Below, in pieces: positions 6,139 to 10,507 of a stretch of 64,000 nt of DNA. The stretch spans positions 128,001 to 192,000 of the forward strand of contig CAVSGP010000004.1 in NCBI GenBank assembly GCA_963727505.1, in the 5' to 3' direction. Made by a program: the position numbers and the translations under genes. Source of the DNA: an uncultured Trueperaceae bacterium (GTDB taxonomy: Bacteria; Deinococcota; Deinococci; Deinococcales; Trueperaceae). The notes under the pieces were generated by a model that did not search any database, had not been told where the DNA came from, and was given only the letters and a program-made list of their open reading frames with translations. Numbering within the stretch: position 1 is the first letter of the stretch; each line of letters begins with the position of its first letter.

Positions 6139-6273
6139 TCACCTCGCCTCGACCTCGCCGACGAACCCCGGCAGCGTGATTCCCACCAAGCCCATCGACT
6201 CGAACACTCCGTGCGGAAGGCCGATGTCACCCACGAACAGGCGGCCCACCATGCCGCCGGGCGTGACGCCCTT
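6139..6273 (-). pseudogene. Orphan 3'-end fragment of nnrE (diverged duplicate of 9794-9928)
   Basis: Translates KGVTPGGMVGRLFVGDIGLPHGVFESMGLVGITLPGFVGEVEAR*, 32/44 aa identical and gap-free against the NnrE C-terminus. Confidence 0.9.
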
Positions 6274-6478
6274 CGGCCTCGGGAGAGGCCGCCCCTTCTA
6301 AGGGAACGTGCCCGATACCTGGCGAACGTCGGGCTCCTCAGGAAGGCTGCAGGGCGGCATGCGTAGCGTAGCGGTGCCGCCATGCATCGTCTCCAGCCGC
6401 GTCACTTTGTCGTTGCAGTGCCCGCGCGCGTCGCGCCAGACGGGTGGGCGCTCGCCTCGACGTGCCATGATCGCCGTG

Positions 6479-6943
6479 GTGAGCACCCGAAGCGCTGAAG
6501 CGTCGCGTCTGCGCGACCTCGCCAGGCTGCGCGGCGTGCGCGACCGGATCGACCGGGAGTACGCACGGCCGCTGGACCTCGAGGGCCTCGCGCGCGGTGT
6601 GCACATGTCGGCCGGACACCTCAGCCGGCAGTTCCGGCTCGCCTACGGCGAGTCACCCTACAGCTACCTGATGACGCGGCGCATCGAGCGTGCCATGGCG
6701 CTGCTGCGGCGCGGCGACCTCAGCGTCACCGACGTCTGCTTCGAGGTCGGCTGCTCGTCGCTTGGCACGTTCAGCACGCGCTTCAAGGAGCTCGTCGGCC
6801 TGTCGCCGAGCGTCTACCGCGCGCGCGAGGCGCAGGCGACCGTAGGGCTGGCGCCCTGCGTGGCGAAGCAGGTGACGCGACCCGTCCGGGAACGTGGCGG
6901 TCGGGAATCGAGAAGCGCTGCGCCGAGACCACCCCTAGAATGA
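6479..6943 (+). CDS. AraC-family HTH regulator
   Basis: RDRIDREYARPLD..MSAGHLSRQF..GESPYSYLMTRRIERA..GCSSLGTFSTRF. Start (GTG 6479 vs ATG 6467) uncertain. Confidence 0.9.
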   Translation: MSTRSAEASRLRDLARLRGVRDRIDREYARPLDLEGLARGVHMSAGHLSRQFRLAYGESPYSYLMTRRIERAMALLRRGDLSVTDVCFEVGCSSLGTFSTRFKELVGLSPSVYRAREAQATVGLAPCVAKQVTRPVRERGGRESRSAAPRPPLE

Positions 6944-6948
6944 CGGCC

Positions 6949-7359
6949 ATGGACATCACCATCCACGCGAGCATGCTCCCGCACGACGATCCGGACACCT
7001 CGATCGCGTTCTACCGCGACGCTCTCGGCTTCGAGGTCCGCGGCGACGTCGAGTACGGGGGGATGCACTGGATCACGGTCGGGCCGGCAGGGCAACCCAG
7101 CACCTCCATCGTTCTGTACCCGCCCGCCGCCACCCCGGGCATCACCGACGAGGAACGCCGAACCATCGCCGAGATGATGGCCAAGGGAACGTTCGCCAGC
7201 ATCAACCTGGCCACCACCGACCTCGACCGTGTCTTCGAGCGGTTGCAGGCCGGCGACGCCGAGGTCGTCCAGGAACCGACCGAGCAGCCGTATGGGGTCC
7301 GCGACTGCGCCTTCCGCGACCCCGCGGGCAACCTGATCCGCATCCAGGAGTTGCGCTGA
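6949..7359 (+). CDS. VOC/glyoxalase/bleomycin-resistance family protein
   Basis: FYRDALGF..EPTEQPYGVRDCAFRDPAGN; TAGAAT box 7 nt upstream of ATG. Confidence 0.92.
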   Translation: MDITIHASMLPHDDPDTSIAFYRDALGFEVRGDVEYGGMHWITVGPAGQPSTSIVLYPPAATPGITDEERRTIAEMMAKGTFASINLATTDLDRVFERLQAGDAEVVQEPTEQPYGVRDCAFRDPAGNLIRIQELR

Positions 7360-7381
7360 GCCAACCGGCGATGGAGGCACG

Positions 7382-9775
7382 ATGGGCAAGACCGGGAGGA
7401 CGGACACGCAGTCGCCCGAACGGCACGCTGCCGACCGTCACGATTCCATCCGCGTGCAAGGCGCACGCGTGAACAACCTCAAGGACGTGAGTCTCGAGAT
7501 CCCGAAGCGCCGCCTGACGGTGTTCACCGGCGTCTCCGGCTCTGGCAAGAGCTCACTGGTGTTCGACACCATCGCCGCGGAATCGCAGCGGATGATCAAC
7601 GAGACCTACAGCGCCTTCGTGCAAGGCTTCATGCCGACGCTCGCCCGGCCCGAGGTCGACGTCCTCGACGGCCTGACGACCGCGATCATCGTCGACCAGG
7701 AGCGCCTCGGCGCCAACGCCCGCTCCACGGTGGGCACGGCGACGGATGCGAACGCGATGCTGCGCATCCTCTTCAGCCGGTTGGGGGAGCCGCACATCGG
7801 CTCGCCCAGCGCGTACGCCTTCAACGTCCCCTCGGTCCAGGGAACCGGTGCGATCACGGTCGAGCGCGGCGAGGACAAGACCAGGGCCGTGAAGCGGACC
7901 TACAGCCGGATGGGTGGCATGTGTCCGCGCTGTGAGGGCATGGGCGCGGTGACCGATATCGACCTGTCCCAGCTGTACGACGACACCAAGTCGCTCGCCG
8001 ATGGTGCGCTCAGCGTCCCGGGCTACACCACGGGCGGCTGGAACTACCGCCTCTACGCGTCCTCCGGCTTCTTCTCTCCGGACAAGCCGATCGGCGAGTT
8101 CACGAAGAAGGAGCGGCACGACTTCCTCTACCGTGAGCCGACCAGGATGAAGATCGCGGGCATCAACATGACCTACGTGGGGCTGATCCCGCGGATCCAG
8201 AAGTCGATGCTCTCCAAGGACGTCGACGCGATGCAGCCGCACATCCGGGCGTTCGTGGAGCGGGCGGTCACGTTCACCACCTGCCCGGATTGCGGCGGCA
8301 CCCGGCTCAGCGGGGCCCCCCGGTCGTCGAAGATCGAAGGGATCCACATCGGGGACGCCTGCGCCATGCAGATCAGCGACCTGGCCGCATGGGTCGCCGC
8401 TCTGGACGAGCCGTCGGTGGCACCTCTGCTCGTCGCTCTGCGACGCACCCTCGACGCGTTCGTGGAGATCGGGCTGGGCTACCTGTCGCTCGACCGGCCG
8501 TCGGGCACCCTTTCGGGAGGTGAGGCGCAGCGCGTCAAGATGATCCGCCACCTCGGGTCGTCACTGACCGACGTCACCTATGTCTTCGACGAGCCGACGA
8601 TCGGGCTGCACCCGCACGACATCCAGCGGATGAACGACCTGCTGCTTCAACTGCGCGACAAGGGCAACACGGTGCTCGTCGTGGAGCACGAGCCCGAGAC
8701 GATCCAGATCGCCGACCACGTCATCGACCTCGGCCCCGGGGCCGGTGCGGCGGGAGGCGCCGTCTGCTTCGAGGGCACCGTCGAGGGGCTTCGGGCAAGC
8801 GCCACCACCACCGGCCGCCACCTCGACGACCGGGCCGGCCTCAAGGAGCCGGTGCGGGAGCCCCAGGGAAAGCTGGAGATCCGCGGCGCGACAACGCACA
8901 ACCTGCAGGGCGTCGACGTCGACGTCCCGACCGGGGTGCTCGTCGTCGTCACGGGCGTCGCCGGGTCCGGCAAGAGCTCGCTCGTGCACGACTCGATGCC
9001 CACCAGCGCCGACGTCGTGTCGATCGACCAGAGCGCCATACGTGGCTCCAGGCGGAGCAACCCGGCGACCTACACCGGCCTGCTCGACCCGATCCGCAAG
9101 GCGTACGCGAAGGCGAACGGCGTGAAGCCGGCCCTGTTCAGCGCGAACTCCGAGGGCGCCTGTCCTACCTGCAACGGCGCCGGCATCATCTTCACCGAGC
9201 TCGGCTTCATGGAAAGTGTCGCCACCACCTGCGAGGAGTGCGAGGGCAAGCGGTTCCAGCCGGCTGTACTGGATTACCACCTCGCCGGCCGCGACATCAG
9301 CGAGGTGCTGGCGATGCCGGTGACCGAGGCCGAGGCGTTCTTCGGGTCCGGTCCCGCGAAGACCCCTGCAGCCCACAAGATCCTGTCCCGGATGGCCGAC
9401 GCCGGGCTAGGCTACCTCAGCCTGGGGCAGCCGCTCACTACGCTCTCCGGCGGTGAACGGCAGCGACTCAAGCTGGCTACCCACATGGGCGACAAGGGCG
9501 GCGTCTACGTCCTGGACGAGCCCACCATCGGTCTCCACCTTGCCGACGTCGAACAGTTGCTCGGCCTCCTGGACCGGCTCGTCGACGCCGGCAAGTCGGT
9601 CATCGTCGTCGAGCACCACCAGGCGGTGATGGCACACGCCGACTGGATCATCGATCTCGGACCCGGCGCCGGGCACGACGGCGGCCGTATCGTCTTCCAG
9701 GGCACGCCCGCCGACCTCGTCGCCGCGCGCTCCACCCTCACCGGCGAGCACCTCGCGGCCTACGTCGGCGGCTGA
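7382..9775 (+). CDS. UvrA-like ABC ATPase (short class II, DrrC/Ecm16-like)
   Basis: Two Walker A motifs ([16 protein letters not shown]), two LSGGE signatures, CxxC pairs; 797 aa, shorter than canonical UvrA. Confidence 0.92.
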
Positions 9776-9793
9776 GCGAGGAGAACCCCGGCG

Positions 9794-10507
9794 CTAGGCG
9801 CCGGTGATCTCGGTAAGGAAACCGGGAAGCTGCACGCCTGGTAAGCCCATCGACTCGAAAACGCCCTGCGGCAGCCCGATATCGCCGACGAAGAGCCGGC
9901 CTGCCATGCCGCCGGGCTGGACCCCCTTCTTGGGCAGCGCCACGGACAGCGTCATGCTGGCGTGCACGATGTCGCCAGGCACCTCGCCGTCGTCGACCAT
10001 CATGCCGGTGGGTGCGTCGAGGGAGATCACGCAGCAACCGTCACCCATGTTGTTCAGCACCGTGATCACGTCCTGGGTGCGGCCGCGCGGCGGCCCCTCG
10101 AGATTGGTGCCGATGGCGGCGTCGATGACGCACGCGAATTTCATCTTGGGAAGGCTCGTGCGCACCCGCACCTTGTCGAAGTGGCGCAGGTGCTCGAGCT
10201 GCTCCTTAGGGGTGCCGGAGTAGTTCTCGGCCTCGTGCGTGGGGACCACCCACACCCGATGACCCCGGGCACCCAGCAAGCGGGCGGCGGCGAGACCGCC
10301 ACTGCCGTTGTTGCCGCGTCCCGCGACCACCAGCACGGGCCCGTCACCTGCGAAGGCGTCCACGAGCGTGACCAGATTGCGGGCCGTGTGCTCGACGAGC
10401 ACGCGGTTGTCCAGACCGTACTTGCCGGTGGCGAGCATGATGAGCTGCTGCATCTGGGCAGCCGTAATCGCCGGGAGGTCATCCCAGGGCAGGACAGGAA
10501 AGCTCAT
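9794..10507 (-). CDS. nnrE: NAD(P)H-hydrate epimerase (stand-alone YjeF N-terminal domain)
   Basis: GRGNNGSGG, IDAAIGT, SLDAPTG, GDIGLP motifs. Confidence 0.85.
   Translation of the reverse strand: MSFPVLPWDDLPAITAAQMQQLIMLATGKYGLDNRVLVEHTARNLVTLVDAFAGDGPVLVVAGRGNNGSGGLAAARLLGARGHRVWVVPTHEAENYSGTPKEQLEHLRHFDKVRVRTSLPKMKFACVIDAAIGTNLEGPPRGRTQDVITVLNNMGDGCCVISLDAPTGMMVDDGEVPGDIVHASMTLSVALPKKGVQPGGMAGRLFVGDIGLPQGVFESMGLPGVQLPGFLTEITGA

Follow-up and report, generated by a model that had tools for sequence, protein, structure and literature searches.

A stranded second copy of the nnrE gene end in a variable chromosomal slot of an uncultured Trueperaceae bacterium

Prophage e14 integrates site specifically into the icd gene of Escherichia coli, where it replaces the 3' end of the gene and leaves a 163-bp pseudo-icd (PMC6379469). 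A similar picture is presented by a 64,000-nucleotide stretch of DNA from an uncultured Trueperaceae bacterium (the window; assembly GCA_963727505.1, contig CAVSGP010000004.1, positions 128,001 to 192,000), in which the last 44 codons of nnrE, the gene for a stand-alone NAD(P)H-hydrate epimerase, occur a second time as an orphan gene end 3.6 kb from the intact gene. As in the e14 case, the last ∼130 to 160 bp of a housekeeping gene are directly duplicated, in register, around an insert, and the gene is intact with a slightly different C terminus (PMC6379469). It differs from the e14 case in that no integrase was detected in the insert, that no identical att core is discernible where the repeats begin, and that relatives do not reuse the site. 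Its two copies are 70% identical, and its insert consists of three ordinary chromosomal genes.

Homology-facilitated illegitimate recombination (HFIR) joins one end of the incoming DNA by homology and the other illegitimately, at a microhomology of 3 to 10 bp, with insertion coupled to deletion; it is described for natural transformation of three species, Streptococcus pneumoniae, Acinetobacter baylyi, and Pseudomonas stutzeri (PMC3240628). As in those experiments (PMC3240628), foreign DNA would have been gained and resident DNA lost in the window with no need for mobility genes, but the insert (2.8 kb) is much larger than the resident piece lost (∼0.12 kb). The same source describes Campbell-type crossover of a circularized fragment, which gave lacZ duplications in which part of the target was duplicated (PMC3240628). 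The window likewise has a homologous segment directly duplicated around an insert without an integrase. It differs in that such a crossover needs enough identity within 132 nt, where the longest identical run today is 17 nt, and in that the crossover implies import of the tail now attached to nnrE, a polarity proposed in a first-pass annotation of this DNA and not favored by the comparative data. The locus also resembles tRNA-adjacent hotspots and flexible islets: a fixed interval lies next to a tRNA 3' end, its cargo differs in nearly every species, no mobility genes were found, and the content is apparently swapped by recombination in the conserved flanks. Such chromosomal hotspots were reportedly found to be common by Oliveira and colleagues in 2017. 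Compared with these, the locus is unusual only in having a gene end stranded within the islet.

We conclude that the orphan is probably a relic of recombination in a variable slot free of mobility genes, with no site-specific element involved and with NnrE left intact. The locus is best read as an ordinary scar of a known kind.

The duplicated nnrE 3' end

The orphan (positions 6139 to 6273, minus strand) comprises 44 codons and a stop codon without a start codon or gene body, as seen by translation, tblastn, and a repeat search. Its counterpart is the current tail of nnrE (9794 to 9928, minus strand), which by translation and alignment consists of codons 194 to 237 plus a stop codon lying 18 nt from the stop of the neighboring UvrA paralog, UvrA2. 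The two align without gaps, with 32 of 44 amino acids identical and the stops in the same register, and 92 of 132 nucleotides agree (69.7%). The orphan was recovered with tblastn at an E value of 6e−19 and in a whole-genome protein search at 3.5e−17, and the pair forms the longest direct repeat in 3300 to 10600 (124 nt, 74%). The open frame around the orphan spans 52 codons and has no start codon at its head, so the orphan is not an open reading frame (ORF). Similarity to nnrE ends at codon 194, exactly where a folding check places a hairpin with a 7-bp stem and a 4-nt loop (6274 to 6291), and no frame of 6274 to 6700 aligned with NnrE residues 1 to 193 above shuffled sequences (z ≤ 1.95). The first-pass annotation had reported both the minus-strand copy and the abrupt end of its similarity at the hairpin, and both were confirmed.

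Uninterrupted identity between the repeats extends over 14 nt (repeat nt 12 to 25) and 17 nt (nt 70 to 86) at most, and neither stretch sits at the repeat start; at this divergence the two stretches speak neither for nor against an att core. The annotation had also described the current tail as richer in codons ending in A or T. Its numbers were right (8 of 44 codons versus 4 of 44 in the orphan, counted by hand without a formal test), and the GC content at third codon positions is 0.82 in the current tail, 0.91 in the orphan, and 0.88 in the nnrE body, but over 44 codons the difference in codon endings is too small to carry weight. The orphan is a nonfunctional fragment of an nnrE allele and has no evident function of its own.

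The gene itself (9794 to 10507, minus strand) is intact and encodes 237 amino acids that match the YjeF_N models PF03853 (103.2 bits against a cutoff of 24.9, residues 36 to 195) and TIGR00197 (89.3 bits against a cutoff of 88.6, residues 19 to 214). Because the TIGR00197 match extends to residue 214, the duplicated tail still belongs to the domain over its first ∼21 residues; judged from these model matches, the duplicated piece combines the domain end with a C-terminal extension. Besides nnrE, the genome has a single YjeF_N gene, which encodes a bifunctional Nnr of 497 amino acids with 30% identity to NnrE. A 7-bp palindrome with a 3-nt loop (about 9787 to 9803) lies in the 18 nt that separate nnrE from the convergent UvrA2 stop and extends over the nnrE stop codon. 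Read by eye, this palindrome may be a candidate for a shared bidirectional terminator.

The interval between nnrE and tRNA-Val in relatives

Relatives were drawn from family genomes (G numbers, G000 being the genome of the window), loci and metagenome contigs (L numbers), and metagenome runs (X numbers). A search with the 44 residues found a second nnrE tail in 1 of 128 family genomes, the one studied here; extra tail matches in G090, G118, and G124 were contig-end overlaps or stemmed from two strains. A metagenome scan with the tail alignment returned eight nnrE loci, none of which had a second tail (0 of 8) or an orphan-like C terminus. Wherever cargo is present in the 127 other genomes and the eight metagenome loci, it lies downstream of an intact, single-tailed nnrE. 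Since a second tail is unique to this genome in the set, nnrE is not a recurrent target.

The slot from nnrE to tRNA-Val(GAC) spans 6.1 kb in the window and contains the orphan. It was mapped in the loci of 13 relatives, and the sequence following nnrE was compared by BLAST with G000. Synteny resumed at the 3' end of tRNA-Val (window 3656 to 3662) in every mapped case. The slot was empty, with ∼70 to 90 nt between the nnrE stop and tRNA-Val, in G001, G002, G003, G008, and G019, and it was likewise empty in L160, L161, L162, G124, and G090:C10. It measured ∼0.3 kb in G005, whose nnrE tail has a deletion. Cargo was found in the slots of G006 (1.6 kb, aldo-keto reductase), G020 (1.7 kb, MFS transporter), G017 (2.5 kb, ArsR and P-type ATPase), G007 (5.6 kb, cyclase-AAA-TPR), G004 (6.6 kb, a Big_2 protein and an AraC-VOC-UvrA2 module), and G014 (8 kb, GGDEF-EAL and LuxR-AAA). 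Pfam detected no integrase or transposase families in the four cargo genes of the window (AraC, VOC, UvrA-like, and GGDEF-EAL) or in 33 cargo ORFs scanned of the 72 listed (≥90 amino acids) in six relatives.

These results redraw the hotspot proposed in the first-pass annotation, which had placed it in nnrE and supposed gene ends carried in by an element. Sequence comparison places the hotspot in the whole interval bounded by the conserved, convergent 3' ends of nnrE and tRNA-Val and not at a point inside nnrE; the single tails in the other genomes and loci speak against element-borne ends. Of what the annotation proposed to look for downstream of nnrE, variable islands were found in relatives but integrases were not in the ORFs scanned. 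Its statement that no integrase lies inside the cassette bracketed by the repeats stood, Pfam giving only an AraC HTH, a VOC domain, and a UvrA-like ABC ATPase there.

Two metagenome contigs, L157 and L159, carry the order yebC-nnrE-UvrA2-VOC-AraC, followed by ∼130 nt and tRNA-Val. In a single blastn alignment L159 is colinear with the window from 12082 through 6460, after which the match resumes at 3659 to 3556, and L157 is colinear with the window over 12081 to 7414, 7359 to 6462, and then 3679 to 3300. Both lack window positions 3660 to 6459, which hold a GGDEF-EAL gene, the orphan, and a short segment between the orphan and AraC (segment X). Read by eye, the 18-nt stretch separating the nnrE stop from the UvrA2 stop is similar to that of L159 (14/18) and of L157 (17/21). 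G004 has the same adjacency of AraC and tRNA-Val with an extra gene in the slot, and the tRNA-Val-AraC spacers of G004, L157, and L159 can be aligned with one another. The window keeps ∼15 nt of this spacer at the AraC end and at most 5 nt at the tRNA end; the resident spacer (about 115 to 130 nt) is replaced by 2.8 kb. Read simply, the window is the L159 arrangement with its spacer swapped for 2.8 kb of foreign-looking DNA whose far end is an nnrE tail.

Contigs of four metagenome runs confirm the context of the orphan: record 2 of X1 spans 4451 to 6413 with zero differences, and record 19 of X6 and record 11 of X2 cover the context in part. No contig in the four runs joins an nnrE body to the orphan tail, and contigs cannot show absence. 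A joint from 3656 to 6499 in X2 was considered as an independent lineage and rejected, as it is G004-like, with 26 of 26 listed variant letters matching. Near-identical contigs of the locus (3400 to 10600; X1, X2, X6, and X8) come from soil and sediment metagenomes of two studies. In X2 the window's type is accompanied by a G004-like relative, so that potential partners for recombination occur in one habitat.

The fixed left edge of the slot is the 3' end of tRNA-Val(GAC) (3582 to 3656, plus strand; ARAGORN and Rfam), next to which lies tRNA-Cys(GCA), a conserved flank (3493 to 3567, plus strand; ARAGORN, Rfam RF00005 at 65.6 bits). tRNA-Val shows at most four differences across 10 aligned relatives and none in G003, G004, G005, G007, G001, and G006, and the tRNA-Cys/tRNA-Val spacer is identical to those of G003 and G004. 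Being nearly invariant, tRNA-Val thus offers a homologous anchor across species. No partial repeat of tRNA-Val was found in 3300 to 10600, and its pieces are not repeated in the genome. A perfect, terminator-like 22-bp inverted repeat with a 5-nt loop (3675 to 3723; 100% complementary in the repeat search) occupies the gap between tRNA-Val and the GGDEF-EAL stop, and the hairpin directly after tRNA-Val differs between lineages. On the other side, yebC (10525 to 11253, minus strand; Pfam) is the conserved flank upstream of nnrE and is syntenic in all loci mapped. The far end of the window holds dnaE (2 to 3301, minus strand), as read from the window anatomy.

In many assemblies the sequence breaks within the nnrE tail, immediately past it, or in tRNA-Val (the end of G004:C8, G009:C80/C287, G124:C48/C102, G090:C10/C123, G008:C151, and G002:C95). 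G090 has one empty-site contig and a second nnrE contig without the tRNA in the ∼2.4 kb fetched downstream. The breaks and the G090 contigs are consistent with strain-level variation of the slot within samples. In the alignment, the nnrE of G005 lacks 34 nt of the tail region (L044, ∼5970 to 6060), which causes a frameshift and an early stop; either the gene is a pseudogene or the assembly is wrong at this point.

The two cargo blocks of the window

The first block is a PAS-PAS-GGDEF-EAL gene encoding 734 amino acids (3748 to 5952, minus strand; Pfam and NCBIfam). No close ortholog was found in the 128 family genomes, where the best relatives share 50% (G033) and 45% (G001) amino acid identity and both lie at other loci. 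A protein scan of genome contigs gave only 26 to 39% relatives from other phyla and was swamped by the generic GGDEF motif, and a DNA search of the family genomes with 3662 to 6466 matched just paralogous GGDEF genes and ordinary nnrE tails. Between the orphan stop and the GGDEF-EAL start lies a 186-nt spacer (5953 to 6138, minus strand) that is unique in the genome, with no second copy in G000.

Segment X (6274 to 6452, ∼180 nt) extends from the orphan to AraC. No homolog of it was found in the 128 family genomes, which gave just short matches (E value of 1e−4 or weaker), and neither segment X nor the 186-nt spacer is repeated elsewhere in the genome. Segment X is unlike the tRNA-Val-AraC spacer common to G004, L157, and L159, with ∼15 nt by the AraC ATG shared. 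Rfam gave no match over 5900 to 6500 at E values up to 1, fold z-scores over the same range were −1.1 and −0.06, and a promoter and terminator consensus scan of 3400 to 10700 returned nothing. A weak, near-colinear similarity (2-codon shift) of segment X to NnrE residues ∼134 to 191 was observed; ungapped, it is the best of 177 offsets at ∼3 standard deviations, and it was left as unexplained and not taken as evidence. It could be due to chance or to a very old gene remnant.

The second block is the AraC-VOC-UvrA2 module. It begins with an AraC-family HTH regulator of 158 amino acids from the ATG shared with relatives (6467 to 6943, plus strand; Pfam HTH_18/HTH_AraC), continues with a VOC/glyoxalase-bleomycin-resistance-fold protein of 139 amino acids (6940 to 7359, plus strand; PF00903, 69.9 bits), and ends with UvrA2, a UvrA paralog of 797 amino acids (7382 to 9775, plus strand; TIGR00630 and Pfam ABC_tran). 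UvrA2 scores 664 bits against TIGR00630, below the cutoff of 729.8, and its matches to the UvrA models, all under their cutoffs, fall in three stretches. The module is present in a single copy in 9 of 9 genomes of the genus, at no fewer than five chromosomal places: in the nnrE/tRNA-Val slot of this genome, G004, L157, and L159; in G003 and G008 at a site matching C4:204.8-208.2 kb of G000; in G001 and G002 at a site that is empty in G000 (C9:482633-482645); and in G005 and G033 between other flanks. In the module loci compared (L148 to L156, L157, and L159), homology to the window always ended sharply, near 6458 to 6505 and 9776 to 9781. No mobility genes accompanied the module at the mapped sites, and no nnrE piece accompanied it at the other flank-mapped sites.

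Relationships within the module change along its length. VOC and the middle of AraC are 94 to 97% identical to G004 in nucleotides (VOC 93.5% in amino acids). UvrA2 shares 78 to 79.5% of its amino acids with G004, L157, and L159 (79.5% with G004), 85.6% with G003 and G008, and the UvrA2 proteins of G004, L157, and L159 share 92% among themselves. The step in identity at the VOC/UvrA2 boundary is sharp, and the first ∼130 nt of AraC are divergent and unlike anything sampled.

Origin of the orphan

The current tail is nearest to those of G003, G004, and G008 (81 to 83% of nucleotides), the same ranking as for the gene body. Identity drops by ∼10 points from body to tail through a higher rate of nonsynonymous change (dN) and not of synonymous change (dS). 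Because most genus pairs share a drop of 3 to 14 points, it is no sign that the tail of this genome was imported. The current tail has 11 private changes versus 6, 6, 10, and 9 in four relatives, and on these comparisons it looks resident, an ordinary member of its clade. The first-pass annotation expected relatives with an empty site to match the orphan better. G003 (82.6% to the current tail versus 74.2% to the orphan), G008 (81.1% versus 74.2%), G002, and G019 are instead nearer to the current tail, and G001 is equally near to both. The annotation had paired that outcome with a separate paralog as the orphan's source; no such paralog was found for the orphan to join.

The orphan was compared with 29 genome tails from relatives and with the eight metagenome loci, and it shares 67 to 79% of nucleotides with other tails (maximum, 78.8%). 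Its dN/dS against them is 0.10 to 0.61, with no indel or stop, as in functional tails. This is a signature of purifying selection and suggests that the orphan diverged while part of a functional gene and was cut off only recently. A mid-tail motif that it retains is confined to the genus among the tails extracted, which suggests that the donor belonged to the genus or stood near it. The clade's C-terminal motif is missing from it. Private changes number 1 in nt 1 to 45 and 17 in nt 46 to 132, and the first 45 nt are 93% identical to G004 (counted by hand). A maximum-likelihood tree of the 132 nt placed the orphan outside the clade of the current tail, G004, G003, and G008 (SH-like approximate likelihood ratio test [SH-aLRT], 88; ultrafast bootstrap [UFboot], 83). 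The tail evidence leans toward a foreign orphan, and no more.

The lack of a recombinase in the ORFs scanned, together with the absence of a partial tRNA repeat and of recurrence and with flanks conserved across species, makes host recombination the economical explanation. We infer that the host takes up DNA and that cargo is swapped between related genomes by RecA-type recombination anchored in the conserved flanks. The resident order would have been nnrE with the current tail, UvrA2, VOC, AraC, a spacer, and tRNA-Val, as in L157, L159, and (with an extra gene) G004. The donor would be an unsampled member of the same genus, contributing a fragment with an nnrE tail, the 186-nt spacer, GGDEF-EAL, and tRNA-Val. 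A homologous crossover in the tRNA-Val gene on one side, and on the other a nonhomologous join of an incoming end that lay inside the nnrE 3' end, would have replaced the resident spacer by HFIR and stranded a 44-codon gene end. The loss of the spacer with a gain of 2.8 kb would be an HFIR-type insertion with deletion, and it is one only under this polarity. We judge the chance that the orphan arrived with the GGDEF-EAL block in this way to be about even. The annotation's broader view, that the two tails are a genuine rearrangement scar involving the nnrE 3' end, is supported, and homology-facilitated recombination, the last of the alternatives it listed, fits best.

Several observations weigh against arrival of the orphan with GGDEF-EAL. 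Approximately unbiased (AU) tests rejected neither a tree with the orphan within the clade (P = 0.49) nor one with the orphan within it and the current tail outside (P = 0.24), and only four sites are diagnostic for the clade. A maximum-chi-square test on the sites at which the two copies differ suggested a switch in affinity near repeat nt 42 to 54 with G004 (P = 0.026) and L159 (P = 0.0056) as references, 10 others not being significant and the tests not being independent; 5' of the switch relatives match the orphan, and 3' of it they match the current tail. Such a pattern would be left by one crossover within the repeat, as when a circular molecule integrates, although uneven rates along the orphan can mimic it. 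No search found the expected donor arrangement, a full nnrE with an orphan-like tail followed by GGDEF-EAL, and segment X is explained by neither polarity. By its alleles the module is a mosaic here and not a simple vertical copy. It is therefore conceivable that one foreign stretch reaching from the current tail to segment X came in and was patched later, which would fit the opposite polarity.

That polarity, the one advanced in the first-pass annotation, supposes an ancestor with an nnrE of body and orphan-type tail followed by GGDEF-EAL and tRNA-Val, into which host recombination brought the current tail, the module, and segment X from a relative whose module borders nnrE directly. The import could have used a homologous anchor in the nnrE body with an illegitimate join at codon 194, or a circularized fragment with a single Campbell-type crossover inside the tail, and it would have left a chimeric NnrE and a displaced native end. 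We regard this polarity as possible and rather doubtful. It lets everything from 9793 to 6274 derive from a single unbroken stretch of donor DNA with only one new junction (X/orphan), it has donor-type arrangements to draw on (L157 and L159), it accommodates UvrA2, the AraC 5' end, and segment X, all unlike the alleles of the nearest relatives, and it predicts the mosaic signal at nt 42 to 54 from a crossover inside the repeat. The 93% identity of the orphan's first 45 nt to G004 also fits, and a single crossover of recircularized DNA that duplicated part of the target was the commonest product of an E. coli HFIR test (PMC3240628). Nevertheless, body genes place the genome beside G004 and L159, which have the module in the slot, so the module would have to have been lost and regained, and exactly one module is found in each of the nine genus genomes. 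A native tail would be expected to have the C-terminal motif, which the orphan's last 87 nt lack while carrying 17 private changes, and this excess is not neutral decay overall (dN/dS 0.1 to 0.6, no indels). Segment X is unlike the AraC-upstream spacer of the donor-type contigs, and the identity of VOC and mid-AraC to G004 is no different from background. The annotation's conclusion of a displaced original end and a chimeric NnrE is therefore one that the ranking of the tail with the body and the colinear, orphan-free L157 and L159 lean against, although the AU test does not reject it.

Direct, in-register gene-end repeats bracketing an insert match the e14/icd picture exactly (PMC6379469), and a module with sharp ends at five or more places in the genus would suit a site-specific element of that kind, carrying a replacement 3' end and using an integrase since lost or acting in trans. 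Such an element is very unlikely here: no recombinase was found in the insert or in the cargo ORFs scanned in the six relatives, the module's conserved ends (∼6458 and 9781) are not the repeat boundaries, no nnrE piece travels with it to the other flank-mapped sites, the longest identical runs of 14 and 17 nt lie away from the repeat start, and none of the 127 other genomes or the 8 metagenome loci has a second tail. It is also improbable, if somewhat less so, that the module is an integrase-free mobile cassette that relocates between sites and entered nnrE as a circular intermediate, by crossover in the last 44 codons, with its own replacement gene end; this would make it a recombinase-independent analog of gene-end-restoring prophage integration. 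A tandem duplication of long ago, or a piece of a separate paralog, in either case unrelated to the cargo, would account for the high synonymous divergence between the copies (dS ∼1.1), but it is scarcely credible, given that an untranslated fragment of such age would not keep its frame, its stop, and a dN/dS of 0.18, that no such copy occurs in the other genomes of the 128 and no paralog has this tail, and that the only other YjeF_N gene is the distant 497-amino-acid Nnr (30% identity).

Under the preferred reading of the orphan as a recombination relic, it would be a dated marker showing that the cargo of this slot is assembled piecewise by recombination without mobile-element machinery, and that recombination in the slot can start inside a flanking housekeeping gene. 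One-sided homologous and illegitimate recombination is known mostly from laboratory transformation. If the donor lineage were found, the locus would provide a natural, sequence-resolved case of it between species. The AraC-VOC-UvrA2 module, single copy yet at different places and with mosaic alleles, is the lead most worth following.

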